Positions 10,488-33,322 of a stretch of DNA of 64,000 nucleotides are shown one piece after another. Position 1 is the first letter of the stretch. Each line of letters opens with the position of its first letter. Origin of the DNA: Nitrososphaerota archaeon (GTDB taxonomy: Archaea; Thermoproteota; Nitrososphaeria; Conexivisphaerales; UBA164); assembly GCA_029786595.1 (NCBI GenBank), contig JAFLXO010000004.1, positions 9,817-73,816 on the forward strand, in the 5' to 3' direction. The notes beneath the pieces are model-generated. The model did not search any database. It was given only the letters and a program-made list of their open reading frames with translations, and was not told the origin of the DNA. Position numbers and translations under genes: made by a program.

Positions 10488-10488
10488 A

Positions 10489-11121: not shown

Positions 11122-11151
11122 GTAATTCTTATTTATCGGTTTACAGACGGT

Positions 11152-15460: not shown

Positions 15461-15479
15461 ATAGAAGCCCCGGGCGAGG
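15461..15479 (+). repeat. attL-like direct repeat (duplicated tRNA-Thr 3' fragment)
   Basis: atagaagccccgggcgagg here versus atagtagccccgggcgagg at 33304-33322, with one mismatch. Confidence 0.75.
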
Positions 15480-15562
15480 ATTCCTATATAAACATTAAAT
15501 CACGCCATTATGAATATATGGTATTATAGCGTCTAGCATTAATCTGTCTTTTATTATATGAC

Positions 15563-15697
15563 ATGATATCCAATTTGCTAACCGTGGAGGAAGTGGCAAC
15601 AACGCTGAAGGTGCCGGAGACGACTATCAGGAAGTGGCTTAAGGATGGGAAGCTCAAAGGGGTTAAGCTTCCCAACGGGGACTGGCGGATCCCCTAG
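15563..15697 (+). CDS. Excisionase-family / MerR-type HTH DNA-binding protein (44 aa)
   Basis: Own translation: MISNLLTVEEVATTLKVPETTIRKWLKDGKLKGVKLPNGDWRIP. This is the classical excisionase-type HTH pattern (LLTxxEaAxxLxvsxxTixxwxxxGklxxxkxgxxwrip). It is below the ORF-track size cut-off. Confidence 0.7.
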   Translation: MISNLLTVEEVATTLKVPETTIRKWLKDGKLKGVKLPNGDWRIP

Positions 15698-15720
15698 GAT
15701 GCCGTAAGGGAGATGATGAA

Positions 15721-15975
15721 GTGATGGTCCTGCTAGAACTAAGGAAAGTGACTCAGGACCGCCTGGCGCGCAAGCTCAAGAGCGATATGCACAAATTTGA
15801 AACGATAGACGAAGTCATAAATTATGGCCTTGACGCAATTGAAGTAATGGACAAGCTGGTGGATGACAGCTACGTCATGAGCGTAATCGATGGTGTCTTT
15901 GACCAACAGAAGGCAGACAGAATTACGGAGCTTGAGGAGGAGCTTGAGTCACTGAAGGCAGGGGTTGAAGCATAA
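15721..15975 (+). CDS. Hypothetical small protein (coiled-coil C-terminus)
   Basis: ORF only. The acidic, helical C-terminus is ITELEEELESLKAG. Confidence 0.4.
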   Translation: MMVLLELRKVTQDRLARKLKSDMHKFETIDEVINYGLDAIEVMDKLVDDSYVMSVIDGVFDQQKADRITELEEELESLKAGVEA

Positions 15976-15993
15976 AGGGGCACCCCTTTGGGG

Positions 15994-16347
15994 CTACTCC
16001 CTGGCTGTCTCCTCCGTGAAAGGTGCAGGCTTCAGGACCATCGTTATGCCCTGGTAAATCCTCCAGTCCGTAGTCACTATGAGCAGCTTCCGGACGAACT
16101 TCCTTGCCTCAATCAGCAAAGCCCGTAAGTTTGTGTCGTCCTTGAAACGGTGCCCCTCCTCGATAACGATAACCCAGTTCTTTAGCGCCCCGGAGTTCTT
16201 GACGAAGTTCAGGTGTGAGAATATCGTGGCCGCTTCAGCCTGTGATATCTGGACGTTGGGGTTGGGCACGAAACGAAGCTTTTCCCCGCTTGCCTGCTCC
16301 CACTTTATGCTGAAGAAATGGCCCACGTCACCTGGTTCAGGATCCAC
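15994..16347 (-). pseudogene. 3' fragment of a HerA/FtsK/VirB4-like (DUF87-type) ATPase gene
   Basis: Only the tail is present: WVIVIEEGHRF (Walker-B-like hhhhEExH) and IEARKFVRKLLIVTTD. There is no Walker A or N-terminal part, and the upstream side is occupied by the IS110 remnant. Confidence 0.45.
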
Positions 16348-17189
16348 CTCAGATATTTGCTTCCCTGCTTAGTTATCGGACCATAGAAAGTATTTTCCCC
16401 TGATGAGTGGGTTGATGGTGATAGGCCTGAATACGAAACAAGATGGTTTGAATCGGTGAACCTGCCTATGTCACCGATTTCACTGACTATCATCAGCGCA
16501 GAATAGTACGATATTCCTGGTATTGTCATCAGGTTCCTTGCGTCATCGTTGTTTTCGGCCATCTTCATTATCATATCCGATGCCCCCTTTATTTCATTGT
16601 TTAACGACTCAATCACGTTCAGGTATCCGTTTATCTTGAAATCCTTCAATTCTCTTAACTTGTTCATGTATTCCTGAGTGAAAGGATAACCGTCTATCTT
16701 GACATTGTACATGAGCAGCCTTGCATGAACTTTATTCTTTGTCACTGCCCTAATCCTAACGAGGTTAGCCCTGTACCTTACAAGCTCCCTCAGCTGCATC
16801 ACTTCACCCGGTGGTATGTAGCTCTGGGCTATATACCCTCCCCTTAGCAGGTTGGCAAGGGTTTAGGCATCAATTTTGTCAGTCTTCACCTTTGCCGAAG
16901 CTATCACCTTTGTCTTCAGCGGATTGGACAGGACCACGTTATGCCTTTCAGACAGCGCTCGGTATGCCCAGTACCAGGTTGAAGAGCTCTCTATTACAAC
17001 ATCCGATTTCTCAGGAAGGGATTCGGAGAAATCCCTCAGGCTATCTGGCTCAGACTTCATCTTAACCTCATTGAGCACTTTCCCATTTTCATCCATAACT
17101 GCTGCATTCAGCGTTAGCTTGTGGAGATCAATCCCAACAAACATGTGCTTACTGTCACCTGATTTCCTAATATCCTTATTCCCGCTCAC
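16305..17189 (-). pseudogene. IS110-family transposase, inactivated (in-frame TAA, 3'-truncated); IS remnant
   Basis: The N-terminal ORF (FVGIDLHK...KTDKIDA) and the C-terminal ORF (TIPGISYYSALMIVSEIGDIGRF...GPITKQGSKYLRWIL) are in the same frame (885 nt). They are separated only by a TAA at 16863-16865 (KIDA*TLANLLRGGYIAQSYIPPGEV). The usual C-terminal ~50+ aa after ...LNQ are missing. Confidence 0.8.
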
Positions 17190-17822
17190 ATATAACTAAA
17201 ACAAACAAAGGACCGTGGGTTTTACCTTTATATATTTTGATAACAGCAACACAAACAACAAAAATGCCGTGTAATAACATACAAAATATTGAGGACTACA
17301 ATTTATTAAGCCATACTGTGTGGTTATTTTTTCGATGATAGATATAATGCCATTAAAGCAATTATGCAGGCAAGAGCTGCCCACTGACTCGCTGTTAAGA
17401 ATGTCAATTGAAGCCGAACGGGATTACTTGATGCCAGAGGAATATCTTGCAAAGCTCAAAGTGTGGCATGTAATGTTAGACCGCGAATTAGGCAAAACCA
17501 AGTGGAAGATGCTTTGCAACACGCGAAATTAAAATCTCAACTGATAATTAAAATTAATTTTTATTTACTTTCTATAAAACCAATCAGCTTTTCTGGCTCA
17601 GTTTCATTAAGGCAACCTATAAAATCAGAATATGAAGCTACCTGGTGAATTTGCGAGCAGAAATTAATACTTTTATACAGCGGTACATTTTTTATAAGCT
17701 GCATCACAATGGAGGTTTTAATATCAGATAGTTGGGCTTTACGTTGGTTAAGCCTGAACTCTGAGGGCTACAGCAGGTTAAAATCTTTAGAAATTAGCAC
17801 GGGCTTTTAACGGTAAACATTT

Positions 17823-18425
17823 CTAACAATCAAAATAAAGGTCCGAAAAACTGATAGTTTCTGCAAATTTAATTATGCTATCTTTTGGATCAATATTTAC
17901 GAAATTTTTTTTAATTAATTTCTCTAATGATTCATCGAATATTAATGCTGTAAAGTTGCCTATCAATTGTTTGTATTTATTACCGAAGGCCTTAGTTATT
18001 ACGTAACACCTTTTACGGAGACCTGTCTTAATGACACGCTCATCCTTTTTTTCTATTTTCAAACTTTTATTCCTTTGGTATATTTTACCAAATAACTTAT
18101 TCAGTTGCATATCAATATCTTTAGAATCTGCATCGAACATAAAGATTAGATTTGAGTTAGCATGGGTTATTTGTAACAATATGCCCGGGAATAATTTAAA
18201 AAGTCTGCCTTTTCCGTGTTCCTCTTTCAATAGTATATGATATGGAGAACTTGGCGAAAGGAAGGAACTTATAACATTAGTTTCAATGGCTTTTTCGGAA
18301 TTCCTTTTTCTCTCTTCTTCAAAATTGAACTTCTTATAGACGCAGCCAGTTGTTTTTTCTTTTTTGATAACTGTTTCTACAAATAATGAGTCGTTTGCTC
18401 CTTCCAATATAACTATTTGTTTCAC
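17823..18425 (-). CDS. TOPRIM-like small partner protein (DUF4435/DUF4276/RloB-like) of the upstream ABC ATPase
   Basis: The N-terminus MKQIVILEGANDSLFVE fits the hhhhEGxxD TOPRIM-type glutamate motif, and FMFDADS further on fits DxD. Its start at 18425 directly abuts the ATPase stop at 18426. The family assignment is from motif memory only. Confidence 0.45.
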   Translation of the reverse strand: MKQIVILEGANDSLFVETVIKKEKTTGCVYKKFNFEEERKRNSEKAIETNVISSFLSPSSPYHILLKEEHGKGRLFKLFPGILLQITHANSNLIFMFDADSKDIDMQLNKLFGKIYQRNKSLKIEKKDERVIKTGLRKRCYVITKAFGNKYKQLIGNFTALIFDESLEKLIKKNFVNIDPKDSIIKFAETISFSDLYFDC

Positions 18426-19718
18426 TCAAATTCCCCTCAGGTCCAAACCGACATCGTTAAGACTTTCTTTAGCTTGAGCTATGTTCATCTCTTCCGAGAT
18501 TATTGTGCCGGCCTTTTCTTTTTTATTTAATCTAATTATATTTGTATTCCGTTTTAGGAATTCTATTTCTTCTTTGGAAAGGGTCGTGGGATTAACAACG
18601 CTATCAATTAAGTCAAAACTATGTGTTGTAATGAAAATTTGATGATGCCCCCTTTTAGACAATCTGATCAAGTACTTGAGAAATTCAATTATGTAACCTG
18701 GGTGCATGTGCACCTCTGGCTCCTCAAGCAGGATTACAGACCTTGGAGGAGAACCCGCAAGGGTCGCAAGTAGCGATATCAGGACCCTAAAGCCATCACC
18801 CATAAGGTTTAACGGAATGATTCCGTCTCCCTCTAAGACGATCGAATTAAAGGAAAACCGTTCGAGACCTTGAATTAAATCCGCTTCTTTAATAATTTTC
18901 TGGACCTCATTTGCAACGCTTTCATTTTGTTCCGAGCTTTTCAAGCTCTCAATAGGGTCCTTTATGTAGATCAATCTTTCTCGGTGTCTTTTATAGCTTG
19001 TTTCTTTTCGACGATTCGCACTAAACCCATAAAGCATATATCTGGGAATGATGTCCGAGGTGTGCCTGACTAGATCTTTTACATCTGGGGTTTCTTTGGC
19101 AATTAAACTAAGTATTTCCCGTATTAATTCATCATACACATTCGAATACGGATGGCCTTTAAAATAACCACTATTCCTTCCGTCATACCATCTGAGTGTC
19201 ATTTTAGCGGCATTTTGAATTTTTTCCCTATTGGATTCAACGTCCAATACCTTATTTATATAGCTATCAATTGTTCTATCCTTTAATATTTTTTTAATAG
19301 TTTTTTCCAATTTAGTTGTTTTGTTTAGATCATGTAGTAAAAACAGAAATATAGACCGAGGTAAATGCTGTAATCCATCTTGGAATTCCTTTTTAAATAT
19401 TACTAAGAACTCTTCCAAGTCAATGTGATAAAGTTCCAATTTCTCTTCCTTCGATCTATTATAATGTATTTGTATTATACTGCTGCTGCCCTTGTGATTA
19501 ATTAAATTTGATGGATTACTCTGATAATTTGGTGGAAGTTCATGACTGTCTTGCATTAAATTCAATGCTTCTAATACCGAAGTTTTCCCCGTATTGTTCC
19601 TTCCAACCAATATATTCAATTTGCGCGGATGTATTTCAATAAAATCTATTGCTTTAAAATATTCAATAGTTAATTTATTAATCATCAATCCCCTTTCATG
19701 TAATTGATAAAGTTTCAA
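18426..19718 (-). CDS. ABC/SMC-like ATPase (AAA_15/AAA_21-type, OLD/AriA/AbiL-ATPase-like)
   Basis: Walker A GRNNTGKTSVLEAL, signature-like LMGDGFRVLISLL, Walker B SVILLEEPEVHMHP, and H-loop IFITTHS. Confidence 0.8.
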   Translation of the reverse strand: MKLYQLHERGLMINKLTIEYFKAIDFIEIHPRKLNILVGRNNTGKTSVLEALNLMQDSHELPPNYQSNPSNLINHKGSSSIIQIHYNRSKEEKLELYHIDLEEFLVIFKKEFQDGLQHLPRSIFLFLLHDLNKTTKLEKTIKKILKDRTIDSYINKVLDVESNREKIQNAAKMTLRWYDGRNSGYFKGHPYSNVYDELIREILSLIAKETPDVKDLVRHTSDIIPRYMLYGFSANRRKETSYKRHRERLIYIKDPIESLKSSEQNESVANEVQKIIKEADLIQGLERFSFNSIVLEGDGIIPLNLMGDGFRVLISLLATLAGSPPRSVILLEEPEVHMHPGYIIEFLKYLIRLSKRGHHQIFITTHSFDLIDSVVNPTTLSKEEIEFLKRNTNIIRLNKKEKAGTIISEEMNIAQAKESLNDVGLDLRGI

Positions 19719-20752
19719 CTATTTAAGAATATTGTTTAAGGTAATAGAGTAGACCGCAGGTCTTACCCTGCGGCCCCTCGTCGAACGTAGCGGGCGGATT
19801 TCCCGCACTACGCTCACCAATGATGTTCATAGTGCCACTGTGTAGAGAACGGGTTTAATCCGTATATTGAGGACTGAAATGCCAGCACCTATTATACTCC
19901 TGTATTTTCCTGTATGCTTCTTCTGATGTCACCTTTTGTACATTCTACAGAGGGACAGGTCAACAAGAAGAGAATCTGCATCAGCAAATTGTGAACAGGG
20001 ATGCGATTGTGGGCTTTTTGGAAAAAGCAACCAGCGGCACCGTTTTTCGAAAGCAGGGCAGGAAAATGAAAATTTAATTCATCTATGGTGACTACGCAAT
20101 GGGAAAGGGGGTTACTGCAAAGGAGGCCGGGAAAATGATGAATGACAAGATATTGAAAGTGCTGACCACGTTCGCGAGAAAGGAGCTCGACATAGCCGAC
20201 TGATTTTATGAAATGCTCACCAACAAAAAGATATAAGCAGGGTTGTGCATAAGAAGGGTATGTCGAAGCATTATACTGCAAATAGTAAATCCGGCCGATG
20301 GCATTATGGGCTGCGGCTTTCCGCGTGCCCAAATGGCCTGCTTTAATGGAATTGTTACTTACGTGTCAGTGCTCCTATAAACGATTTCAGGTCTTGGATC
20401 CTTATTTCTATGTCATCCTTTAACGACGGATAAAGGGCCTGCTGGCTTCTAAACTCTTTAATACCCCCTTCCAGCTATGGCGACAAGGATTTTAACCAGG
20501 ACTTCCTCATTGCCATCGGTATATATTCGTTCAATTGCTTTGCATAGGCTAAAACTGGATGGCAAATATGTACCTGTTAAGGAGTTGTACAGCTTCCCCA
20601 ACTTCTCCCTAAAGAAGATTGTTTCGGGAAATAAGTCTGGTCTCTCTACCAGGTTATATATGCCCTCTTCAGAAAATTTTGCCGCTGGTCTAACCCGTTT
20701 TCCGTTGGTGTAGAACTGCCCTCAAACAACAGGAAAAGAAACTCCCTTTTAT

Positions 20753-23014
20753 TTATGTAAAACAAATGCAGTCCCCTTGGTTAAAAATTTTTACCATCTC
20801 ATCCCCCTGCCTGTCAGCATATCCCTTGCCGAGCACGTGGAAAGCGAGAATTCTTACTAAATTGCCTATACCGCTCTTGAATTCCATGTTGAATGCCGTT
20901 GGCGTACCCATGGAATAAACGCCGGGTCGGGGTGCCTCCGGCTTGGTCTCCGGTTTGTTGTCTGGCTGCGATGGCGCCTCCGGCTTGCTTTCCGGTTGCT
21001 GTGTAATCGGTCCTTTCTTGTTGCCCCTGCGTCTTAACGCAAGCGCGGCTCCAGTGATTACGGCCGCCATCACTATCACGATTATGGCTATGTTGGTATA
21101 GTTGTAAGTGTAGTTAACGGTCAGGGAGGCCTGCACGGAATACCCTGTCGCGTCCGTCGCGGTTACGTTCAGCACGTTCTGGCCCATGTTCGCAAGCTGG
21201 TAGGTATAGGTTGCAGACGTGGTGGTGGCCACCTCCTGCCCGTTAAGATACCATGTGTAGGTGTAGGGGGATGTCCCGCCGCTCATCGCCGCATCCAGCA
21301 CAACGATATCGTTGGAATAGAGGAAGCTGCTGGAGCCGAGGGTGTATGTGCCGTTCATGGAGGGGTCCGGGTTCACGGTCAAGGAGATAGTGTTTGAGTT
21401 GACCTGGTAACCAAGGGAATCAGTGAGCCTTGCGGTAATCTGGTAACTGCCAGGGTTGGCAAGGGTGGTGGTGTCCCCGCTCATTAGGTTGCCATCGAGG
21501 TAGTAGGCTATGCTGTAGGGCGGGGTGCCCTGTGAAGTGCTTGCGGAGACCGTTAGCGTCTGCCCTGTATCGTACGCATTGCTCGGCACGGATATGGAGA
21601 TAGTAGGATCAGGATTAACGGTGAAGTATAAGATATTTGAATCAACCTTGTACCCGGTGGAATCGGTAAGTTGCGCATAGACTTGATGAGTTCCGGAGCC
21701 TGATGCCGTAGGTATGCTATTCCCAACGGGCACCCCATCAAGGTAATATGTGATAGTGTATGGGGGAGAGCCCATGGATGTGCTTATGGAAATATCAAGT
21801 GCCTGTCCTGCATCATAAGTTATAACTGGCATCGTAATGGAGATCGTAGGACCAGCGTTGATTGTAAGAAACACGAAGTTTGACAATGTCGCGGTATCTC
21901 CAATTGAATCAACCACCTCGAAAGTAGGGGTATATGTGCCGGCGCCGAGATTGTTGACAGTAAATGCAGAATTATAGTTGGTAGAAGAAGTGGAGGAGCT
22001 AAAAACCATTGTGCCATTCACGTAGATGTAGTAATAATATGGTGGGACGCCTCCGCTAACCACAGAATTAAAAGAATCGCTCAGCGGCATTCCCGCATCG
22101 CCAGTTTCAGAATAAGAATTGATAGTTACGTTCATATAAATAGGCCCGGTTATGAACATATTTGTATCCGCATATTCAGTGGCCCCATTGGACGAATATG
22201 GGTATAGCTGGCTGGTAAGGGATATCGGGTTTGAAGTCGACGTGGAGAAAAGGACCTGCTGGGTATTTGTATTATATTCATCAACCCACAGCCAGGCCGA
22301 AGTGAACTGGAATCCCTGCTCTGAATAGGTGACCTGCTGCTCACTCCCATAATATGGGTTGGTGTGGTACCATTCTGTCATCAGTCCGGTGAAGAAGCCG
22401 TTGGAATTCGAGGTGCTGTACCCGTTCTGGCCCTGGAAGTATGTGGCTCCCTCAGAGCTGAAGGTCTCCGAGGCACTGGCGCCCGTGTTCCAGTCATAGG
22501 CATACATTTTCACCACGCCGGTGGAGTTGTCAAAGTATAAATTGAGGAGCACTAAATCACCGCTGTTGACCGGTCCGGAGAAGCTATCCATGCCGCTTCC
22601 TCCAGCTGTAGGGAAAATTGAGGTGCCACTGGGGTTGAATACTTCATAGTTCATGTCGAAGCCGGCAGTTGGGCCATCCCAATCGTATGATAAGCCAACC
22701 TGATACCAGTAACCGGTATTTGACAACCCGTTTAAAAGATACGCCGGTCCATAGCCGGAACCACTCACTTGAGCTATCGCAGTTACGTTAAACGCGAGCG
22801 ATGTAAAATCCTGGGTAAAGGATTCACCCAACTGTTCATCCCAGTTGGCTGCTGGCGAATTGGCACCCTGTAATCCGGCAACTTCTGCTGATGGCAGCAG
22901 CCCGGCCGGATGAACATTAACAGCGCCGGCCTGGGCATTGGCGTGCGCAAAGGACGGGCTTGCGGCCAGCGGAAGGGTGAGCAACAGTAGGATAAGCCAG
23001 ATCTTATTTAGCAT
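20753..23014 (-). CDS. Secreted, membrane-anchored surface protein: possible acid-protease-like (thermopsin/eqolisin-like) N-domain followed by PKD-like repeats
   Basis: Signal peptide MLNKIWLILLLLTLPLAASPSFAHANA. Four PKD-like modules with GxxPYxYxW/Y motifs (GGVPPYYYYIY, GSPPYTITYY, GTPPYSIAYY, GGTSPYTYTWY). TM segment IAIIVIVMAAVITGAALAL followed by RRRGNKK, then a Pro/Glu/Lys-rich tail. The N-domain call is weak (GYWYQVGL, LMTEWY). Confidence 0.7.
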   Translation of the reverse strand: MLNKIWLILLLLTLPLAASPSFAHANAQAGAVNVHPAGLLPSAEVAGLQGANSPAANWDEQLGESFTQDFTSLAFNVTAIAQVSGSGYGPAYLLNGLSNTGYWYQVGLSYDWDGPTAGFDMNYEVFNPSGTSIFPTAGGSGMDSFSGPVNSGDLVLLNLYFDNSTGVVKMYAYDWNTGASASETFSSEGATYFQGQNGYSTSNSNGFFTGLMTEWYHTNPYYGSEQQVTYSEQGFQFTSAWLWVDEYNTNTQQVLFSTSTSNPISLTSQLYPYSSNGATEYADTNMFITGPIYMNVTINSYSETGDAGMPLSDSFNSVVSGGVPPYYYYIYVNGTMVFSSSTSSTNYNSAFTVNNLGAGTYTPTFEVVDSIGDTATLSNFVFLTINAGPTISITMPVITYDAGQALDISISTSMGSPPYTITYYLDGVPVGNSIPTASGSGTHQVYAQLTDSTGYKVDSNILYFTVNPDPTISISVPSNAYDTGQTLTVSASTSQGTPPYSIAYYLDGNLMSGDTTTLANPGSYQITARLTDSLGYQVNSNTISLTVNPDPSMNGTYTLGSSSFLYSNDIVVLDAAMSGGTSPYTYTWYLNGQEVATTTSATYTYQLANMGQNVLNVTATDATGYSVQASLTVNYTYNYTNIAIIVIVMAAVITGAALALRRRGNKKGPITQQPESKPEAPSQPDNKPETKPEAPRPGVYSMGTPTAFNMEFKSGIGNLVRILAFHVLGKGYADRQGDEMVKIFNQGDCICFT
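21110..22141 (-). repeat. Four tandem PKD/Ig-like coding repeats (about 80-95 aa each) inside the surface protein gene
   Basis: Residues ~292-635. Repeats 2 and 3 align closely (PTISITMPVITYDAGQALDISISTSMGSPPYTITYYLDG versus PTISISVPSNAYDTGQTLTVSASTSQGTPPYSIAYYLDG). Confidence 0.6.
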
Positions 23015-24646: not shown

Positions 24647-27028
24647 TTATTTGAATTGGAGAGATAGTTGTTTTAGTTTATCTTTAATTATTGCCCTCTC
24701 TTTATTTACCGCCTTAACCTCTGACGTTATCTGTGCTATTTCTTTCTCGGTCAGTTTAGGCACCTTGATTGTCATGTATTCATCGTCCGATATTGCTGGT
24801 AAAATTGTTCCTGAGGACTTCCATCGTACCTGATCTAACGTTGTCCTGAGCCTTAATATTACAAATAGAGCTTCTGCGGTCATAGGTGGTCTTGGTTTCA
24901 ATACCACAAAGCCAGATGAGACTATTGCGCCTTCGTATTCTTCTGGTATAATGGCTACATTCTCTTCGCTGTCCTTTACTTTTGCAGCTACTATGTCCCA
25001 TTTATTTACAAGCAACTTGGCTCTTGAAGGAGCTTCTTCTCCGAGCAAATCATAATGGCTTGTTATATCTCCAAGATTGCTCTCTATGTTGCTATACTGA
25101 ATATACTTTATAGCCTTTTTGGGTTCTTTCTTCGGATTGACTATTATTTTTGACTGAACTGCTATGTCCTTTATCTCACAACTTTCTTTCTTAAGTTCAA
25201 AAACGTATTTTGCATGGTAATACGTTGCATCTATTCTATCCTTTACCATATTTTTTCCTATGATGAAACAAGATGGTGTATTGTTCAAAATTTCCATAAC
25301 ATCTGTTTTGCCTTTTAGATTCTCAAAGAACTTGCTCGATTTGTACTCCTTATAGACACTGAGAATTTTAGGTAAGTCATTTTGATCTATTGGCTTTGCC
25401 TCTTTTGTTTTAGTCTCATAACCAACATAGTCGGCTACTGCCATAAATATTGGTTGCTGTTCTTCGTCTTCAGCAATCTTTTTCTTAATGAATAATAAGC
25501 TTGTTTTGCTGTTAGCACCAGACGCCTTGAACGCTCTGTCTGGAAGACTTATTACCGCCTTTATTACTGCCCTGCTTTTTATGAAGTCTCTTACGTAAGT
25601 TAAACGTTCATTGTTTAGTATGCCGTCTGGTAATAGAATAGCAAGCTCGCCACCAGCAGGTTTTAGGAACTTTAAGCACTTCTCAACGAACAGTATCTCT
25701 CGTAGTTGCTCTTTCATTACCTTTTTATCCACTTTACCTAAGTCAAATTGTTCTAAGATTTTACCATGATCCTTATTCCCAAAAGGCGGGTTTGTTATTA
25801 CTAAGTCAAATTTACCTTCAGTTATTTCGTTTATTCCCTCAAGACCGTTTGCTTTGTAAATTTTGCCATGTCCATCTCCATGCAATACCATATTCATTTT
25901 TGCTACCATGACCAACCTTTCGTTAATGTCAATACCGAATATTTGCTCCTTAGAAAGTCTTTCGAGAAGTTCTTTCTGTTTGCTCTCTGGTTGTCTTGCT
26001 ATCTTTTCCTGTATTGCCTTAAAAACCTCTATCAAAAATCCGCCAGAGCCGCAAGCAGGGTCTAATACGAGATATGGATCATTGCGGTTTGATACGGCAG
26101 AGTTAATCTCTGGATCTGCAAATTGAACAGCAAATCTGACTATTGTTCTTGGCGTAAAGAATTGTCCAAGTCCGCCTGTAAATGTTTTACCGAGAAATAT
26201 CTCAAAAGCACGACCTTTTACATCTATATTAGTTCTTATTAGTGTATATCTTTGAAGCAATTCTACGAGTTTTTCTATGCTTTCGTCTTGCAAATTTATG
26301 ACTTCATTGCCTGTGAATATGTCCTTGTTGTTGTCTCTTGCTTCTTTGAATAGGTAATTTCTGACGTATTTAGCACCACCATTAGCTTTTATGCTTTCTA
26401 TTGAGAAGGGGTTTGATTTGCCGTCTAATGCTAACTTCTCAAAATACATCTTACAAAATAAGATTTTACTTATTTCATCAAAAGCATCTGCACCTGTAAG
26501 ACCATCAACATCTCTTATAACGTCTTCGCATTTTAATAAAATTGATGAGAATTCTTTTATTCCTTCAAAAACGAGCAATGTCTTTCTTGCCTCTTCAAGT
26601 CTTTCTTCTGAAATAGTTTCTACAGCTTTGCCTATTTGTCTTGTTAAATTCTCTTTTGATAAAAATGTTGGTAATACAGATACTGGTTTATCCCAGATTA
26701 CTTTCTCTGTCTGCGTCTCGTAGACTTTAATTGTTAAGCCATTTGATAGAACCGAGTAAGGTGCCTTTAAGAGAAGTCCATAGGATATAATTTGCCTTTC
26801 GTAAAGGTTTAAATTTTCAGTTGGGTTTTTGCCATCAACAACAATTACAGAAACCCCATTTATGTTTATTACAATATCTGGATAAACGTATTTGCCTCTA
26901 CCTATTTCTATTGACTTTTGATGTTCTATTTCCCCTTTAACCTTTTCGCTATATCCGAGTTTTTCAAGGATGGGAATTATAATCTTTATGATAACATCCG
27001 TCTCTGAATTATCTTCAAAATTGGTCAT
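24647..27028 (-). CDS. Single-chain restriction-modification enzyme candidate (Type IIG/IIB-like): PD-(D/E)xK nuclease + N6-adenine methyltransferase + one TRD
   Basis: The N-terminal HSDR_N-like fold has YPDIVI...VIVVDGK...RQ (PD...DxK...Q). MTase motif I is VLDPACGSGGFLIE and motif IV is TNPPFGNKD. The C-terminal ~200 aa resemble a Type I S-subunit target-recognition domain ending in a coiled coil. Confidence 0.8.
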   Translation of the reverse strand: MTNFEDNSETDVIIKIIIPILEKLGYSEKVKGEIEHQKSIEIGRGKYVYPDIVININGVSVIVVDGKNPTENLNLYERQIISYGLLLKAPYSVLSNGLTIKVYETQTEKVIWDKPVSVLPTFLSKENLTRQIGKAVETISEERLEEARKTLLVFEGIKEFSSILLKCEDVIRDVDGLTGADAFDEISKILFCKMYFEKLALDGKSNPFSIESIKANGGAKYVRNYLFKEARDNNKDIFTGNEVINLQDESIEKLVELLQRYTLIRTNIDVKGRAFEIFLGKTFTGGLGQFFTPRTIVRFAVQFADPEINSAVSNRNDPYLVLDPACGSGGFLIEVFKAIQEKIARQPESKQKELLERLSKEQIFGIDINERLVMVAKMNMVLHGDGHGKIYKANGLEGINEITEGKFDLVITNPPFGNKDHGKILEQFDLGKVDKKVMKEQLREILFVEKCLKFLKPAGGELAILLPDGILNNERLTYVRDFIKSRAVIKAVISLPDRAFKASGANSKTSLLFIKKKIAEDEEQQPIFMAVADYVGYETKTKEAKPIDQNDLPKILSVYKEYKSSKFFENLKGKTDVMEILNNTPSCFIIGKNMVKDRIDATYYHAKYVFELKKESCEIKDIAVQSKIIVNPKKEPKKAIKYIQYSNIESNLGDITSHYDLLGEEAPSRAKLLVNKWDIVAAKVKDSEENVAIIPEEYEGAIVSSGFVVLKPRPPMTAEALFVILRLRTTLDQVRWKSSGTILPAISDDEYMTIKVPKLTEKEIAQITSEVKAVNKERAIIKDKLKQLSLQFK

Positions 27029-27372
27029 AAAATATCACCAATATTGCGTAAACTAAACGCTAACAGTTGCTGAACTAGCAAGCAAAGAAATAGCCGGCTG
27101 AATCTTGTATAGTGTCTAAGCCATAATACAATTTTAGTATCCATATTATTGAGATACAAGCTTGTATGCTTTACTATAAATCCATTCATGCCTTTACCCG
27201 CTTTAGCGATGTAATAAAGTGCTATTAAATTATGGGTTTTACCATCACCCAATGAAGTTTCAAGCTTGATTATAGGCGTAGAATCTGGGGCTTCGCCACT
27301 AAGCCTTCCAAACACTTCTTTCAACTGTTCTTTGCAGTCCCCCCCGAAGACTCTATCTACCCAATTGCCCAT
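27025..27372 (-). pseudogene. 5' fragment of a DUF499-like P-loop ATPase gene
   Basis: PIIKLETSLGDGKTHNLIALYYIAKAG resembles the N-terminal Walker A region of large (~1000 aa) DUF499 ATPases. Only about 70 plausible residues are followed by low-complexity sequence. The stop overlaps the RM start (ATGA). Confidence 0.4.
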
Positions 27373-27549
27373 ATAATCCGTAATTGCTTATTTGATTAAT
27401 AAGTATTTGCTGCAGGTGTTTCCATCTTTGCATCTATATTATGAGGGTCGGAGAGGTGGTTTTACCTGCGCGTTTGCGTAAGGGTTTGTCCATGCTCAGT
27501 CATCGCCCTCAGCGCGTAGTCCTCGTAACGCGCTGTCTATCTATATTAT

Positions 27550-28029: not shown

Positions 28030-28199
28030 ACAGTCAACCGGTAGGGGCGCACCCCTTAGAGTGGGGTATTTTAATCAATTAGATCATGATGTTTGGGAAG
28101 GAAAGAAAGCTAAAGAACGGCAGCTATTAACACGACAAAGTCAGCATGCCGCTAAAGTCCATACCGTCTATCTTTTCTACCTGCATATTATATAGATCG

Positions 28200-28570
28200 C
28201 CTGAGCGTTGCCAGAAATGGCAACGTTTTGTTGCCTTTTTGCGGTTTTTGCGTTACCATTTGCTATTTTTAGCCCTCCTGATGGGTTGGTTGTGGGGGGG
28301 CGTTTCATACCTGAGCATAAACAAATATGTTGACAATTTGTTAACTTTCAGCCATTTTTCCATCAGCATTCCTGTATTTCCTACCCCTCCTGTGCGGGGG
28401 CGGTTCGTAGCATACATCCTAAGCGGCACCATTTGTGGTGTCATTTTGACACCATTTTGAGGTTTTTATGGCACCATTTGCCAGTTTTAGCTCTTTCCCA
28501 AGATGGGTTTAGCGGGGGCGCTTCATAGATATTTTTTATCCCAAAAAAATCGCAAAAAAAGACGCTGGGT
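28200..28570. promoter_or_regulatory. Iteron-like repeat cluster, putative replication origin of the element
   Basis: Three copies of GGGGGCG(N)TTC(A/G)TA at 28294-28316, 28394-28419 and 28512-28533. Four to five copies of (G/T)(C/T)ACCATTT(T)G at 28253, 28433, 28449 and 28469. Palindrome gttgccagaaatggcaac at 28207-28224. An A/T tract at 28531-28560. The region lies upstream of the helicase operon. Confidence 0.5.
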
Positions 28571-28671
28571 GTTTAGTTTGGAAAATTTTGACTTTGCGCA
28601 TATCTATATAGTATGACCAAATACTGCGGTTCATTTGGCGACGCGGCATTATCCGCGGACGGAGTGGGAAA

Positions 28672-29214
28672 ATGAACGAGGAAGGCAGGGCCCCCCTGCA
28701 AGGGGGCCACAACGGAGAGGTAGCATCAACAAATAAAAGCACACATCTTTTCGAGCGCACCATCGATGATGGAACATACAAACTTCAGGTTTGCGTGAAT
28801 GCGTTGGGCCGTATTGTAGTTTCCATTAATGAAATTTCAATCACAGTCTTAGCTGAAGATGGCCTTGAAGCGGTATGGCATGAACTAATACTGGCTGGCG
28901 CCTTTGGCCCAGCGGTTCCAGAGCACGATCGCTTTCGAATCCTTAACAACATTTCATTTATGCATCGCGACGCGGTCACATGGCTTGCTGAGGCACAAAA
29001 ACGCACTCAAGCCAAGCATAACGATTCAAGGGTTCAAACGCTGGCCGACCTGTTCAAGGAGGAGAGCGAAAAAATGATAGGCAAGCCGGGGTCAGGAGCT
29101 GGACTAAACTTCAAAACAGAGTCAAAAATGGCAATATTTACAGAGGGTAGAAATTCCGCAGGAACCGCCGGAACCGCCGGAACCTGCGCGATGAAACAGG
29201 CAAGGGATAAATAA
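28672..29214 (+). CDS. Hypothetical protein (first gene of the helicase operon)
   Basis: Its stop overlaps the helicase ATG (TAATG). The C-terminus SAGTAGTAGT is encoded by the GGAACCGCC repeat. Confidence 0.45.
   Translation: MNEEGRAPLQGGHNGEVASTNKSTHLFERTIDDGTYKLQVCVNALGRIVVSINEISITVLAEDGLEAVWHELILAGAFGPAVPEHDRFRILNNISFMHRDAVTWLAEAQKRTQAKHNDSRVQTLADLFKEESEKMIGKPGSGAGLNFKTESKMAIFTEGRNSAGTAGTAGTCAMKQARDK
29143..29183. repeat. Left arm of perfect 41-bp inverted repeat
   Basis: gagggtagaaattccgcaggaaccgccggaaccgccggaac is the exact reverse complement of 30598-30638. Confidence 0.9.
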
Positions 29215-31007
29215 TGGTCGAAAATCAAACCGCCGGAACCTTGACGCCAACCATGGATACCCTACCGAACGAGGTCGCTGATGCTCTCCTTGTCACCATG
29301 CACGTCCTTACCCTTCGTGATACCAAGGAGATGCTTGTCTACCGTGATGGAGTATATGAAGAGTACGGGGAGCAGGTCATAGAGCAGCTGGTTTTGAATA
29401 CGTTCAAGCACGCCCGCATAGCACAGAAGCTCAACCGGAATTACATGAACGAAGTGCTGGCCCACGTGCGCTGGGGCTCATATACGGACAGGAAGGAATT
29501 TGACAATGACGAGAATATAATCCATCTTGCGAACGGGCTTCTGGACATCAGGACAGGGAAGGTGTCGCCCGAAACACCGGATTACTATTCAAGGATCAAA
29601 CTTCCAGTGTTTTACGATCCTGAGGCGAAGGCGCCGGCATTCGAGAAGGCGCTGGCTGAGATACTGCCGGATGAGAAGGCAAGGCTGGACGTTATGGAGG
29701 AATTTGCGGCCGTCCTCTGGCGCACGGCGAAGCTCCAGAAAGCCTTCCTATGGGTTGGGAATGGCCGCAACGGGAAGTCAACGCTCTTATACGTTCTCCA
29801 GTCATTGATAGGGGCGAAGAACTTTTCAAGCATAGCCATACAGGACTTGCAGGTTAGTCGTTTCAAGCCGGCCGAGCTTGATGGGAAACTTGCCAATATC
29901 TATAGCGATATATCGGCGACAGAAATCCATGCCACCGGGATTATCAAGTCCATAATCAGTGGTGATGCGATAACAGTTGAAAAGAAGAACCGCGACCCCT
30001 TCACATTCCATCCGTTCTCAAAGCTGTTCTACTCAGCGAACCAAGTGCCGGAGGTGCTGGACTCATCGGATGCATGGTTCCGCAGGTGGAAGATCACCGA
30101 ATTCACGCAGGAGTTCGAAAAGGACAAGTGCGATCCCGACCTTCCGGCCAAGCTAACGAGCCCGCAGGAATTATCAGGCATCCTTAACCTTGTCATTGCC
30201 ACCCTGAAAGACCTGATAGCGAGGGGGAAGTTTGCCCATGAAGATGATATCGATCTTATAAGAGAGAGTTGGCTGCTAAAAGCTGACCACCTGCGCAGGT
30301 TCATTGATGCCGAACTTGAGCTTGAGCCGGGTGTTGACACGTCAAGGCAGAAGGTGTATGACGCCTATACGAAATGGTGTTATGAGAACGGCGTGGTTAA
30401 CGTCTACAGCCAGCAAAAGTTCAACAGTGAGTTCATAAAAAAGATACCGGTCAGCCAGTCTTCCCCAAAACCGGGAGGCAAAGGTACCAATTCGGTGTAT
30501 AGCTGGAGGGGGGTGAAGTTCAAGGAAGGTTCCGGCGGTTCCGGCGGTTCGACAAAAGTCGATGCCGGACAAAAAACCATCAATGAAACGGAAAATAGTT
30601 CCGGCGGTTCCGGCGGTTCCTGCGGAATTTCTACCCTCCCAAAAAATGGCCATTTTGACGATCTTGTCAGTGAACTGACCAAACGGGACGGCAAGATTTA
30701 TGTCAAGTGTAAGGATCATAGGGTTGACAGCGACGGTCACGAGCGTTGGTTCTGCAAGGACGACGGGGAGTGGGAGATGCACCTGCAAAGACAGCATGGC
30801 TTAGAGACGAAGGCGGAAGCTGTGCTGGACATATTCAGGAAGCTCTGCGGCCCGGAGAATAAGGAGGTCACGGTGCAGGAGGTCATGGCCGAGCTGAAGA
30901 AGGCAGGCATAGAGGAGCCCGAGGGGGCCACGCTGATTGCGTCGCTGCAGAATAACGGGCAGATATATGAAAGGAGCCCCGGCAGGTTCAGCCTTACCAT
31001 ATCATGA
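29214..31007 (+). CDS. D5/P4-type SF3 replicative helicase (phage/plasmid primase P4-family C-terminal domain) with C-terminal winged-helix
   Basis: D5_N-like region (IIHLANGLLDIRTG...PETPDYY), Walker A VGNGRNGKST, Walker-B-like KLANIYSD, then WFRRWKIT. A Gly/Ser linker and a Cys/His-rich segment follow, then a wH-like tail. Confidence 0.85.
   Translation: MVENQTAGTLTPTMDTLPNEVADALLVTMHVLTLRDTKEMLVYRDGVYEEYGEQVIEQLVLNTFKHARIAQKLNRNYMNEVLAHVRWGSYTDRKEFDNDENIIHLANGLLDIRTGKVSPETPDYYSRIKLPVFYDPEAKAPAFEKALAEILPDEKARLDVMEEFAAVLWRTAKLQKAFLWVGNGRNGKSTLLYVLQSLIGAKNFSSIAIQDLQVSRFKPAELDGKLANIYSDISATEIHATGIIKSIISGDAITVEKKNRDPFTFHPFSKLFYSANQVPEVLDSSDAWFRRWKITEFTQEFEKDKCDPDLPAKLTSPQELSGILNLVIATLKDLIARGKFAHEDDIDLIRESWLLKADHLRRFIDAELELEPGVDTSRQKVYDAYTKWCYENGVVNVYSQQKFNSEFIKKIPVSQSSPKPGGKGTNSVYSWRGVKFKEGSGGSGGSTKVDAGQKTINETENSSGGSGGSCGISTLPKNGHFDDLVSELTKRDGKIYVKCKDHRVDSDGHERWFCKDDGEWEMHLQRQHGLETKAEAVLDIFRKLCGPENKEVTVQEVMAELKKAGIEEPEGATLIASLQNNGQIYERSPGRFSLTIS
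30598..30638. repeat. Right arm of perfect 41-bp inverted repeat
   Basis: gttccggcggttccggcggttcctgcggaatttctaccctc. Weaker similarity continues for about 22 bp beyond both arms. Confidence 0.9.
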
Positions 31008-31057
31008 AGAGATAGATGGAATATGAAACAAGCGATAGTTAAACTTAAGGCGCCGGC

Positions 31058-31324
31058 GTGGGAAAATCATATCCGGAACGCCGGATATCAGCACGGATTC
31101 AGGAGAATTATCCCAAAGGTGGTCAAGCCATGACCAGTTATCAGCTCCGAATCGTAAAGAGGGAATGGGATCCGGCGAGGAAGGCCAAGGCCTCTCATTC
31201 ATTAATCACAAAGCCGCTCTCTGAGGCGCAGGCCAGGCAGCTGGTTGAATTGTTTAAGTCATCAGAGTTGTTCAAGTCCGCAGCGCTTATTGAAGCAGAA
31301 GTCAAGGAGGGCCGGATGGCATGA
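31058..31324 (+). CDS. Hypothetical small protein
   Basis: ORF only. The likelier start is the internal MTSYQLRIVK. Confidence 0.35.
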   Translation: MGKSYPERRISARIQENYPKGGQAMTSYQLRIVKREWDPARKAKASHSLITKPLSEAQARQLVELFKSSELFKSAALIEAEVKEGRMA

Positions 31325-31983
31325 TCGCCGAACACTTATTACGTCAACGGGACACAATTCCCCAAGGCATCAGGGCAAAGACGCAATACCTTGTATTCAG
31401 GCACCGGTTCAATAATCCAGGGGACAGCCTTGAAGACGTGGCAAAGGCGCTTGGCCTGAGCTACTGGACGGTGGCCAAGTCATGGTCAAGGCTCAGGCGT
31501 TCAAGGAACCTGGCCAGGCTGTGCCCGGTATGCTTCCATGAAACGCTCTACAATTCCCTGTGCCAGAGCTGCGGGGCCGACTTCCGGGAAGATGAAACAG
31601 GGGGCGTTGAAATGGCTGACATGGACCAGCACAGCCCGGTCTATCGGATCCAGCCTAACGGCGGCCTTGGGGGAGAGCCCCAATACAGCGGCCTAAGGCT
31701 CCAGAACCGGCCCACATATATCCGCCATTTAGTGGAACAGCAGGGAGGAGACGAAGGGAGGATCCAGGAAATACTTGAGCTGATATGGGAGGAGCTCAAG
31801 GCAACCATGCCTAGGGATGACGTGGGGGAGCTGGCCGCCAGGACCGCAAGGAAGGAGTATTACCGGATGAAGCGGGATTACCCGGACCTGATGAGCAAGA
31901 AGGGGTTCAAGGAAGCCGTAGCCGGGAAGGTCGTAAGGGAGCTGAGGACCATCTATAGAATAGGCAATGGAGGTGAGCGGTAG
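31321..31983 (+). CDS. Putative regulator: HTH plus zinc ribbon
   Basis: LEDVAKALGLSYWTVAKSWSRLRR is HTH-like, followed by CPVCFHETLYNSLCQSCG (CxxC...CxxC). Confidence 0.5.
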   Translation: MIAEHLLRQRDTIPQGIRAKTQYLVFRHRFNNPGDSLEDVAKALGLSYWTVAKSWSRLRRSRNLARLCPVCFHETLYNSLCQSCGADFREDETGGVEMADMDQHSPVYRIQPNGGLGGEPQYSGLRLQNRPTYIRHLVEQQGGDEGRIQEILELIWEELKATMPRDDVGELAARTARKEYYRMKRDYPDLMSKKGFKEAVAGKVVRELRTIYRIGNGGER

Positions 31984-32066
31984 GATGAACGACAGCGATA
32001 AGGAGGCCGAATACGTCAAGGTGCCCAAGTCAAAGATAGTTGAAATGATAGAGGAAGTAAGGCGGC

Positions 32067-33305
32067 TCAGGGAACTGTCTCGTGACCAGAAGCAAGAAGG
32101 GCGTTAAGCTGCTCTTCAAGCTTCGCCAGCCTTTCCTCATACTCGTTCCTTATTCTTGTTTCAGTCTCGAGCGCCTTCCCGCTTGCCGGGTTGAGCCATG
32201 GCCGGGCGATCTTCATGTATTCCTTCCTGTAGTGCTCGGGATCGTTCCACGGGGACTTGTCATACTTCAGCTTGTCTATCGAGTGGCCCAGAAAGAAGTT
32301 GGCAGCCGTCATGTCGGCCCCAACGTGTTTTGCCATCGTTATCAGGGTATCCCTGCATTCGTGAGAATGAAATGCATACTGGATATGGGCTCCCTTAAAC
32401 TTTTCGAGCTTGACCGACGGATCCCTTATGTTTATCTTGGCACGCCTGCCAGCCATGAGGAATATCGAGGTCACCTGCTTGGCGCTCATGGGATGGCCGA
32501 ACTTGTCAATGAAGATGGGGTCCGAATGAGGGAGCTCTCCCGGGTTGCCTGGATAAACCTTCAGGTCCCTTCCCTTCAGGTATTCAGCTATGGTCTCAAC
32601 GGCATCAATGTCCAGGAAGGTATAGTACCTGTAATCCGACTTTGGCCTTACCAGGTCAATCCTTATCGGGCACGCAGTTTGACATTTTGACACATCATTT
32701 AACACGCCCGAATTTAATAGCTGGGGATATCCAACTAAGTTGAAGACGTCCGTGAGCGTAGAGGCGTCCATGCCCGACTGAAGCATTGCCAGGATAACGG
32801 CCCTGTCCCTCACCGACACCTTCCCGTAATGAAGAGCCGTGTTGATATATTCAAGGAAATCATGGGCCGTGATTTCTCGCCTTATCGTATGGTGGTTCCC
32901 GTTCCTTACAACTGGCCGGACGTGGGGGAGCTCCACGAAGTTATGAAGATAGAATGACCTTATGGTGGCCATCTCCCTCCTGATTGTCTCCTTGTTCTCG
33001 GATGGATATTCCTGGCAGTATTCAAGCAGCCTGCTAACATGATCGACCAGGACCCTGTTATTCCCGTTCAAACACTCATCGATCAGCCTGTCCGGGTCCG
33101 CCTCGAAGCCCCTTGATTTCAGCCATCTCACGTAGCGGCCCAGTGCGTAGACGTTGCCCTTCCTGTAGCCGCCGCTCCTGAGAGCATTAAGCCATTTCCT
33201 AACGCTCTCCCTTTCAATCAGTGGTTCTAGGTCGTCATAGACCTTTGAAATTCCGCCCGGCCCCCTGCTCATGCTATTAAAAAGGTGAGGTTCGAACTTA
33301 TCCAT
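32067..33305 (-). CDS. int: Tyrosine recombinase / integrase
   Basis: C-terminal catalytic pattern: AFHSHECRDTLIT (HxxR), FLGHS, then KLKYDKS (Tyr). The start codon lies inside the att core, and the gene abuts tRNA-Thr. Confidence 0.85.
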   Translation of the reverse strand: MDKFEPHLFNSMSRGPGGISKVYDDLEPLIERESVRKWLNALRSGGYRKGNVYALGRYVRWLKSRGFEADPDRLIDECLNGNNRVLVDHVSRLLEYCQEYPSENKETIRREMATIRSFYLHNFVELPHVRPVVRNGNHHTIRREITAHDFLEYINTALHYGKVSVRDRAVILAMLQSGMDASTLTDVFNLVGYPQLLNSGVLNDVSKCQTACPIRIDLVRPKSDYRYYTFLDIDAVETIAEYLKGRDLKVYPGNPGELPHSDPIFIDKFGHPMSAKQVTSIFLMAGRRAKINIRDPSVKLEKFKGAHIQYAFHSHECRDTLITMAKHVGADMTAANFFLGHSIDKLKYDKSPWNDPEHYRKEYMKIARPWLNPASGKALETETRIRNEYEERLAKLEEQLNALLASGHETVP

Positions 33306-33322
33306 AGTAGCCCCGGGCGAGG
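33304..33322 (+). repeat. attR-like direct repeat overlapping the tRNA-Thr 3' end
   Basis: atagtagccccgggcgagg. Positions 33309-33322 are the discriminator, the acceptor 3' strand and the T-stem 3' strand plus one T-loop base of the tRNA. Confidence 0.75.

Follow-up and report, generated by a model that had tools for sequence, protein, structure and literature searches.

A plasmid-like integrated element at the 3' end of a tRNA-Thr gene in an uncultured Nitrososphaerota archaeon

The DNA analyzed here, referred to as the window, is a stretch of 64,000 nucleotides (nt) from contig JAFLXO010000004.1 of a Nitrososphaerota archaeon (assembly GCA_029786595.1). Compared with sister genomes, positions 15461-33322 of this window, about 17.86 kb (17.9 kb), are inserted DNA whose two boundaries fall exactly on a duplicated 19-bp core overlapping the 3' end of tRNA-Thr(UGU). 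The element is very likely an integrated, plasmid-like 'cryptic integrated element' (CIE) of an uncultured Nitrososphaerota archaeon, and we hold with high confidence that it arrived by integrase-mediated insertion of a plasmid-like element. A preliminary description of the same DNA had proposed an integrated element of plasmid or provirus type at this tRNA 3' end; the tyrosine integrase (int), helix-turn-helix (HTH) protein, superfamily 3 (SF3) helicase, att repeats and empty sites reported below support that proposal. Feature coordinates are collected in Table 1.

Boundaries and empty sites

The two copies of the core, ATAGAAGCCCCGGGCGAGG in attL and ATAGTAGCCCCGGGCGAGG in attR, are identical at 18 of 19 positions, as previously described, and the similarity stretches beyond the 19-bp core to 20/22 nt. 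They are the only matches to the 19-mer in the 64-kb window, even at up to two mismatches, and none of 100 dinucleotide-preserving shuffles contained a match. The attR copy consists of the last 14 nt of the tRNA-Thr gene, namely one T-loop base, the 3' strand of the T-stem, the 3' strand of the acceptor stem and the discriminator, followed by 5 nt downstream. This agrees with the earlier assignment of the right copy to an intact tRNA gene, and the sequence of that gene in the window is the same as in the empty-site genomes. The insert is thereby flanked by direct repeats copying a tRNA 3' end.

Relatives were sought with the flanking LeuS protein among one genome per species. Two close ones were found, the metagenome-assembled genome (MAG) 'archaeon' DX2.bin21 (L012, LeuS 98% identical) and TL1-5.bin24 (L013, 96%); the remaining LeuS matches were at most 40% identical. 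In both genomes the gene order is rpiA, an open reading frame (ORF) of 150 amino acids (aa), tRNA-Thr(TGT), 154 nt and leuS, with a single copy of the core. In the alignment with the empty site, the attR side of the window agrees as far as the core, and from the core on the agreement passes to the attL side. In blastn comparisons with L012, the left flank (10.5 kb) was 96.1% identical and the right flank (9.8 kb) 96.7% identical; the alignments stop at window position 15460 and resume at 33323, with exactly 19 nt of L012 between them. DNA of the element itself had no blastn match in L012 or L013.

The arrangement that the preliminary description had predicted for an empty site, with leuS adjoining tRNA-Thr and one 19-mer, is thus present in both sister genomes, which have none of the internal genes. 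Two patterns that it had named as incompatible with an insertion, paired 19-mers in relatives without the internal genes and a 19-mer dispersed as a common repeat, were not observed. Its suggestion of a Thermoplasmatales host did not hold: exact look-ups of flank and element proteins led to entries named 'Nitrososphaerota archaeon' in NCBI MAGs.

The lone mismatch between attL and attR is the first base past the discriminator. Empty sites carry T at this position in L012, as attL does, and A in L013, as attR does. This pattern would fit the recombination of an attP with A into an attB with T, with a crossover within the 14 bases shared with the tRNA, as we infer from the sequences.

An alternative reading sees no insertion at all: the region would be ancestral, with a deletion in both L012 and L013, or the two 19-mers would be a chance repeat. 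In its favor, presence and absence alone give no polarity, and the empty site is represented by two genomes. Four observations speak against this reading. The boundaries match, to the base, a repeat of a tRNA 3' end that lies beside a tyrosine integrase. The GC content of the element is a mosaic of 35-54%, unlike that of the flanks. The layout of an integrase gene following a tRNA recurs at many tRNAs, and an exact loss of the DNA between the repeats would amount to excision by the integrase. We consider the absence of an insertion effectively refuted, with a very small probability left to it.

The same element was found at the same site in five metagenome contigs and in the MAGs GCA_029786485.1 and GCA_023381215.1. 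Samples with the element include ERZ27237177, ERZ27237019, ERZ27236928, ERZ27237044 and JGI 3300039716. A recent spread of the element was considered when it first looked 100% identical among carriers at places where the left flank differed by 1-2%, and was dropped once the mismatches were seen to cluster at 3-5 kb and 8-12 kb of the window, the near flanks being as identical as the element. Nearly all mismatches in the flanks of carriers sit at window positions 3000-5000 and 8000-12000 (up to 77 per kb), two stretches of the host chromosome that are locally hypervariable or recombined, and the rest of the 46 kb compared is near-identical.

Integrase, replication genes and related elements

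The integrase gene lies beside attR on the minus strand, as the preliminary description had stated, and its 412-aa product scores above the PF00589 cutoff. It has the catalytic set of tyrosine recombinases (R...HxxR...H/W...Y) and a two-domain fold of core-binding and catalytic domains. The 59 homologues are 30-57% identical to it; among 27 family members, R220, H315, H341 and Y348 never vary, and conservation of R318 is at least 90%. Box II reads H315-E-C-R318 (HxxR). The AlphaFold2 (AF2) model has a mean predicted local distance difference test (pLDDT) score of 85.6, and its top Foldseek matches in the PDB, all with probability 1.0, are XerA (5hxy), lambda Int (1z19), IntI (2a3v) and Tn1549 Int; SSV1 Int is a weak match (E>2). 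By motif and model, the protein is a classical (XerA/lambda-like), non-split tyrosine recombinase with a full catalytic set.

At the opposite end, 83 nt from attL, an ORF of 44 aa encodes the excisionase-type HTH protein noted previously, for which the TIGR01764 'excisionase family' model scores above cutoff. An HTH_17 homologue occupies the same end of a 7.2-kb relative (L116, described below), and no HTH_17 gene is present at the far end of three other related elements, L039, L040 and L041. The 44-aa protein is a candidate recombination directionality factor (RDF).

The SF3 helicase reported in the preliminary description was likewise recovered. The 597-aa protein combines a D5_N domain with the SF3 core (PF08706 and PF19263 in Pfam), and scores well above the TIGR01613 cutoff. 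It carries a C-terminal extension of about 120 aa that is absent from its relatives. A primase domain of the AEP or Toprim type was looked for, and the first ~70 aa match no primase family. The 180-aa ORF directly upstream was considered as a primase and rejected, as it matches no family even at E<=1 and shows no AEP motifs by eye.

The third backbone protein, of 220 aa, is encoded between the helicase and int and matches no family above threshold; Pfam gives weak hints of an HTH and a zinc ribbon, in keeping with the motifs seen by eye. An indexed search returned three homologues, and the AF2 model was unusable (pLDDT 55.7). It is presumed to be a DNA-binding regulator or initiator.

The iteron region proposed earlier was found as iteron-like repeats upstream of the 180-aa ORF and the helicase, a candidate replication origin. 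Repeats GGCACCATTTG, GACACCATTTT and again GGCACCATTTG start at 28425, 28448 and 28470 with a spacing of 22-23 nt; a fourth variant lies at 28252. In addition, GCGGGGGCGNTTCRTAG occurs three times in the region, and A-tracts at 28538-28560 are followed by a TATA-like sequence. The consensus GVYACCATTTK has three copies at 28425-28480, its sole matches in 64 kb, and 2 of 100 shuffles also reach three copies. Inverted repeats of other sequence adjoin the helicase genes of the relatives L040 and L047.

A separate inverted repeat of 59 nt was noticed around the helicase gene. Its arms (29125-29183 and 30598-30656) are 92% complementary, 1414 nt apart and both within coding sequence: one falls in the part of the 180-aa ORF that specifies its C-terminus, the other in a helicase linker. 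Each arm contains tandem repeats of 9 nt (CCGCCGGAA in one arm, GGTTCCGGC in the other). L040/L048 and L047 carry different inverted repeats beside their helicase genes (TGTCCAGGG / GGGTGGACA), and the 59-nt repeat was not found at equivalent places in relatives. It could be origin-related.

The integrase belongs to a family of about 60 protein relatives and 122 metagenome loci, and gene contexts were taken for the integrase homologues and for 80 of the metagenome loci. At 12 loci, int is followed by a homologue of the 220-aa protein on the opposite strand, and a D5-type helicase comes next in the five loci reaching far enough. Cargo differs between the related elements and includes Mrr, an ABC transporter, PLD with a DEAD helicase, and ubiquitin-like systems. 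The recurring backbone consists of int, the 220-aa protein, an SF3 or other P-loop ATPase and sometimes an excisionase-type HTH gene, and it is found at many tRNA genes with varied cargo.

The smallest relative (L116/L117, positions 5072-12283) is a 7.2-kb element at tRNA-Cys(GCA) with the 13-bp att repeat CATCCCCTCCTCC. Its genes are, in order, HTH_17, small ORFs, a 615-aa P-loop protein, the 220-aa homologue and int. The element is part of a 450-kb contig in GCA_021324115.1, and a 2.07-Mb contig also carries its 220-aa homologue (P0094). In sister genomes (L118/L119, 7886-8426), a 141-aa N-terminal remnant of int with 86% nucleotide identity stands right after tRNA-Thr(CGU). The junction, ...GGGGCT ACTATGGATAAGTTTGAACC..., is nearly as in the window, and DDE_Tnp_1 and rve transposases come next, a truncation by insertion sequences (IS). 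Because this int remnant is at an isoacceptor tRNA gene, elements of this type have integrated at least twice in the lineage.

Some loci of the family have unusual surroundings. In L041/L042 (~6700-6800) and L113 (~9640-9775), two tRNA-Gln core copies (TAGCCGGGCTA) stand about 60 nt apart upstream of int, the first preceded by an AT-rich sequence like a P arm, and in L113 a degenerate T-loop-like motif lies upstream as well. These look like tandem or decayed element arrays that re-use tRNA-Gln. L115, a 22.6-kb Logan contig of which the first 11.3 kb were seen, starts 78 nt upstream of int with the AT-rich, non-tRNA sequence GAGCTAATTAGG, followed by a core-like stretch, and could be the unintegrated (attP) form of a family member. 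No circular contig of the family was detected by terminal overlap.

A rival reading is a provirus of an unrecognised archaeal virus type, with virion proteins among the unannotated ORFs (for example the immunoglobulin (Ig)-domain protein or the ORFs of 252, 159 and 180 aa). Several ORFs have no family match, the Ig-domain protein matches Hoc-like decoration PHROGs, a 117-aa fragment resembles an nSTAND3/DUF87-like P-loop ATPase of the related element L031, and cryptic elements in general may be novel viruses or plasmids (PMC6563490). Searches of the element's ORFs against Pfam and PHROGs gave no capsid, portal, terminase, packaging ATPase or conjugation family, in line with the preliminary description, and no structure-based search of the unknown ORFs was made. 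Neither did Pfam reveal VirB4/VirD4-type ATPases, a relaxase or mating-pore proteins; the 117-aa fragment of an unclassified P-loop ATPase was all that was present. The PHROG matches of the Ig-domain protein are to generic Ig domains, and its signal-like segment and membrane anchor resemble those of a cell-surface protein. An alignment-based scan of 2.9 million IMG/VR contigs returned no relative of the integrase. Moreover, the related elements share int, the 220-aa protein and the helicase alone, with unrelated cargo that in one case is an ABC transporter, and the minimal relative measures just 7.2 kb. We therefore regard a provirus as quite improbable and favor a plasmid-like element.

In the course of events that we propose, a circular form with attP (CCTCGCCCGGGGCT-A-CTAT) would have recombined with the identical stretch at the tRNA 3' end, so that the tRNA gene was rebuilt. 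The small HTH protein would bias the reverse reaction, and the helicase, acting at the iterons together with host replication proteins, would replicate the episome.

Where the integrase gene lies with respect to the att site

A co-oriented tRNA gene lies upstream of int in 31 of the 56 loci with enough upstream sequence; for 27 of these 31, the distance from its end to the conserved integrase N-terminus is 23-55 nt. The genes belong to many tRNA species, and several further loci hold tRNA remnants upstream of int. About 10 nt past the tRNA end the family shares a T-loop-like motif, GGTTCRA; in the window, it appears on the P' arm 11 nt past the tRNA end as AGTTCGAACC, with the motif stretch GTTCGAAC at 33290-33297. 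Of 23 non-redundant loci, 17 have a GGTT or GTTC that begins 8-13 nt past the tRNA end, compared with a mean of 4.3 and a maximum of 11 in shuffles (n=2000). A YTTTTA tract is also conserved after the tRNA, represented in the window by T5 at 33277-33285.

The integrase ORF of the window starts 3 nt past the tRNA end, and its ATG (33305-33303) overlaps the att core by 2 nt. An alternative start, M12 at 33272, would leave 36 nt and give a 401-aa form. In the window's subfamily, 11 of 12 lineages have an in-frame ATG at 3-8 nt beyond the tRNA end with an open frame after it, while the internal M12 codon is ATG in seven of those lineages, TTG in three and absent in one. Because the upstream in-frame ATG is kept more than M12, the start of the 412-aa ORF at 33305 is probably real.

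On the other side of the core, a TATA-like box abuts it on the P arm in all five elements whose far end was found. The P arms, each followed by the core, read TTTATATAGGAAT in the window, TTTTATTAGAGG in L040, TTCTTATAGCA in L039, ATAATAATC in L041 and GTTTAAGT in L116. The background frequency of the octamer is 0.15 in the window, 0.024 in L040, 0.02 in L039 and 0.033 in L041, jointly ~2e-6 as the product of the per-locus rates. When attP is reconstituted, four of the five elements have 22-26 nt between the end of the box and the first in-frame start; in the window, the 3' end of the octamer falls 22 nt upstream of the integrase ATG at 33305. A distance of 22-26 nt from TATA box to start is the geometry of archaeal leaderless promoters.

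These spacings suggest, tentatively, that integration separates int from its promoter and that the gene has a promoter of its own in the circle alone. In the circular form, the P-arm TATA box would supply int with a correctly spaced promoter of the leaderless type. After integration, this promoter would lie 17.8 kb from int, pointing toward leuS, and int would be silent or expressed from tRNA read-through, possibly released by RNase Z; the YTTTTA tract could terminate tRNA transcription. With similar reserve, we propose that the integrases may form an undescribed, widespread family of the classical archaeal kind whose transcription unit is built across attP, the ORF starting 3-13 nt past the tRNA end in the window's subfamily. 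Some of the comparisons count against the separation of int from its promoter. The upstream ATG of L116 is followed by a stop and that of L039 is out of frame, so that the spacing varies, and 11-mers are the basis for assigning att in L039 and L041.

The P-arm TATA box (15485-15492, minus strand) points at leuS, whose ORF starts at 15311, about 170 nt downstream, and integration may add a promoter upstream of leuS.

If the proposed separation is true, integration would act as a hard-wired switch and, together with the excisionase-family HTH gene, would give archaea an integration-state control similar to the split-operon control of P2 and to the 'suicidal' effect of SSV integration, with the gene not destroyed. 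In phage P2, integration reportedly separates int from its promoter (the 'split-operon' of Bertani, 1970). A literature search for 'split-operon' returned no paper using the term.

Cargo, decay and relation to known elements

Between the HTH gene and the iteron-like region, the element carries candidate defence genes, a putative surface protein and several gene remnants (Table 1).

Table 1. Features of the integrated element and its target site, in window coordinates
Feature	Position	Strand	Basis or remark
attL, leuS-proximal 19-bp core copy	15461-15479		T at the variable position, as in the L012 empty site
TATA-like octamer TTTATATA, P arm	15485-15492	-	5 nt from core; compared with P arms of L040, L039, L041 and L116
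Excisionase-family HTH protein, 44 aa	15563-15697	+	TIGR01764 37.9 bits (cutoff 28.8); PF12728 E=4e-11
ORF, 84 aa, function unassigned	15721-15975	+	called as gene in MAGs
P-loop ATPase fragment, 117 aa	15994-16347	-	Walker-B-like VIVIEEGH by eye
IS110 transposase pseudogene, two ORFs (108 and 165 aa)	16305-17189	-	model positions 1-98 and 121-295 of 343
AAA_15/AriA/PDC-M38A-like ATPase (430 aa) and 200-aa partner	17823-19718	-	GC 35%; candidate defence cargo
Group II intron domain V/VI remnant	19744-19817	-	RF00029 44.5 bits (gathering score 40); between Ig-protein and AAA_15 ATPase genes
Ig-like repeat protein, 753 aa	20753-23014	-	N-terminal signal-like segment and C-terminal membrane anchor by inspection
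ORF, 252 aa	23164-23922	-	no significant family match; C-terminus winged-helix-like by eye
Fused protein, 793 aa	24647-27028	-	HSDR_N-like N-terminus, N6-adenine methyltransferase, S-subunit-like C-terminus
ORF, 115 aa, probably a gene fragment	27025-27372	-	matches N-terminal part of DUF499/HmaC ATPases alone
Iteron-like region, candidate replication origin	~28250-28560		upstream of 180-aa ORF and helicase
ORF, 180 aa	28672-29214	+	directly upstream of helicase; no family match
SF3 helicase, P4/D5-type, 597 aa	29214-31007	+	DUF5906, D5_N, Pox_D5; TIGR01613 188.9 bits (cutoff 108.7)
ORF, 88 aa, function unassigned	31058-31324	+	
Backbone protein, 220 aa	31321-31983	+	beside int in 12 related loci; HTH then CxxC...CxxC zinc ribbon by eye
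Tyrosine integrase, classical type, intact, 412 aa	32067-33305	-	PF00589 29.3 bits (cutoff 27.1)
T-loop-like motif AGTTCGAACC, P' arm	33289-33298	-	11 nt past tRNA end
attR, tRNA-proximal 19-bp core copy	33304-33322		A at the variable position
tRNA-Thr(UGU), integration target, intact	33309-33382	-	ARAGORN and Rfam (anticodon TGT)

The 793-aa fusion is type I/IIG-like and resembles MAD2 at a score under that family's cutoff; the neighbouring 252-aa ORF is possibly a partner of this methyltransferase. The 200-aa protein next to the AAA_15-like ATPase has weak matches to DUF3226 and PDC-M38B. Sub-threshold NCBIfam matches to MADS components were also seen, the HTH protein with MAD1, the methyltransferase with MAD2 and MAD5 and the ATPase (18426-19718) with MAD3. 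A MADS system was rejected because the three genes lie scattered across 11 kb and none of the scores comes near its cutoff. The preliminary description had placed all defence-like cargo of the window inside the element; ten large ORFs outside it, the part that the test covered, gave no PADLOC hit.

The 753-aa Ig-like repeat protein looks like surface-protein cargo. In one contig (L005), about 1 kb of its gene (22067-23000, the 5' part) differs from the window by 84 mismatches and the sequence is identical elsewhere, which could reflect a variable surface-protein region or an assembly effect at the contig end. Among the remnants, the 117-aa ATPase fragment is 70% identical over 58 aa to the nSTAND3/DUF87-like gene of L031. 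The RF00029 match looks like the 3' stub of an intron; a complete group II intron was considered and rejected, with no reverse-transcriptase ORF, no D1-D4 match at E<=1 and no 5' GUGYG upstream. Outside the element, the 1032-aa ORF at 300-3398 (+) corresponds to an intein-bearing family B DNA polymerase, according to the Pfam list of its counterpart in L006.

Remnants of this kind bear on whether the element is still mobile. It could be a dead genomic island that integrated once, decayed and no longer excises or replicates, with the att sites and int as relics. The broken IS110, the ATPase fragments, the intron stub and the mismatch between the att copies would all suit such an island, as would the facts that every contig of the population carries the element at the same site and that the sister element at tRNA-Thr(CGU) was destroyed by IS insertions. 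The preliminary description had suggested looking for a circular attP junction. The attP junction would read GGTTCGAACTTATCCATAG[A/T]AGCCCCGGGCGAGGATTCCTATATAAAC, and the empty-site junction would be the tRNA-Thr 3' end followed by [A/T]CTATTAGAGTAATCGCG. No attP junction or circular form was present in contigs carrying int or the HTH gene or in IMG/VR, a search that took in neither raw reads nor the JGI metagenome collection. No assembly looked up contained it, so any present-day mobility is hypothetical. On the other hand, the integrase is of full length and keeps every catalytic residue, and the genes for the HTH protein, the helicase and the 220-aa protein are likewise intact; cargo alone is damaged, and the att mismatch is explained by the attB/attP polymorphism (T in L012, A in L013). 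A dead island is unlikely on balance, and an integrated plasmid-like element with a preserved backbone remains the preferred interpretation.

Besides the missing attP junction, three points weigh against that interpretation. There is much debris in the element, which may be in decay. Among carrier strains it is no less diverged than the near flanks, with no sign of recent spread. Finally, neither a primase nor an initiator was recognised, and no fold is assigned to the 180-aa protein or the 220-aa protein.

Among the elements of Thaumarchaeota surveyed by Krupovic et al. (2019; PMC6563490), 39 of 68 are in tRNA genes, all but one of them at the 3' end. For the CIE class of that survey, the median is 17 kb in size and 17 bp in att length, and the tyrosine integrase is its sole constant gene. 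Its members encode replication proteins that include SF3 helicases, restriction-modification and Ig-domain S-layer-like cargo, and they contain internal IS insertions (PMC6563490). The element of the window shares the phylum, the tRNA 3' end, a 19-bp att, a length of 17.9 kb, an SF3 helicase, similar cargo, an internal IS and the lack of virion or conjugation signature genes. It also corresponds to the class in operational terms: an integrase and att sites are present in a thaumarchaeal host, and signature genes for virions, casposase or conjugation are absent. Unlike in the described CIEs, its helicase has no fused or adjacent primase-polymerase domain, an excisionase-family HTH gene stands at attL, and int lies within 3-55 nt of the tRNA end throughout the family. 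The likeness is one of described features; neither the element nor its integrase family was traced to one of the elements that PMC6563490 names.

The integrase can also be compared with the classes defined for archaeal enzymes. Integrases of the pNOB8 type (class II; She et al.; PMC8371274), known from Sulfolobales, have a YxxR box II and an att core of 40-50 bp. As in that type, int remains intact after integration, following the lambda paradigm in which attP and attB share a core; in contrast to the class definition in PMC8371274, box II is HxxR, as in XerA and bacterial enzymes, the core measures 19 bp and the host is a member of Nitrososphaerota. In the 'suicidal' SSV type (class I; SSV1, pTN3 and pT26-2), int is split by integration and box II is KxxR (PMC7253208, PMC8371274). 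A resemblance to this type is that integration disconnects something that int needs, here apparently the TATA box, and that attP is found at, or within, the 5' part of int's transcription unit. It differs in that the overlap with the core is limited to 2 nt at the start codon, the ORF is unsplit and intact after integration, and HxxR replaces KxxR.

A further parallel is the bacterial STI layout exemplified by KplE1 IntS (Panis et al. 2010), where the spacer between tRNA and int averages 208-228 nt and holds the promoter (PMC2951348). There, too, a co-oriented tRNA stands right upstream of int, and the int promoter region and the recombination site overlap, an arrangement from which autoregulation through Int and RDF binding is expected. 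In the family described here the spacer is 3-55 nt, with no room for a promoter in the window's subfamily, and the signals are an archaeal TATA box and leaderless-type starts. The helicase, in turn, resembles the primase-helicases of P4 (alpha) and poxvirus D5 (TIGR01613; PDB 7ola, 'DNA primase') in its D5_N, SF3 helicase and C-terminal winged-helix regions. It lacks their N-terminal primase domain, PHROG primase families match it via their C-terminal halves, and it has the ~120-aa C-terminal extension.

Archaeal integrases characterized so far need no directionality factor (PMC8371274); if the 44-aa HTH protein proved to be one, it would be unusual among them. Taken as a whole, the element extends a described class, the thaumarchaeal CIEs, and does not overturn current views, while the integrase-promoter architecture is a plausible variant feature. 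It adds a cleanly delimited element, verified by empty sites, from a poorly sampled, uncultured branch of Nitrososphaerota with very few known elements. It also shows how a small integrase/helicase backbone can carry a putative surface protein along with candidate defence genes, here a fused methyltransferase and the AAA_15 ATPase pair, and the layout of its integrase gene suggests a testable rule for the family, by which integration would unplug the integrase from its promoter.

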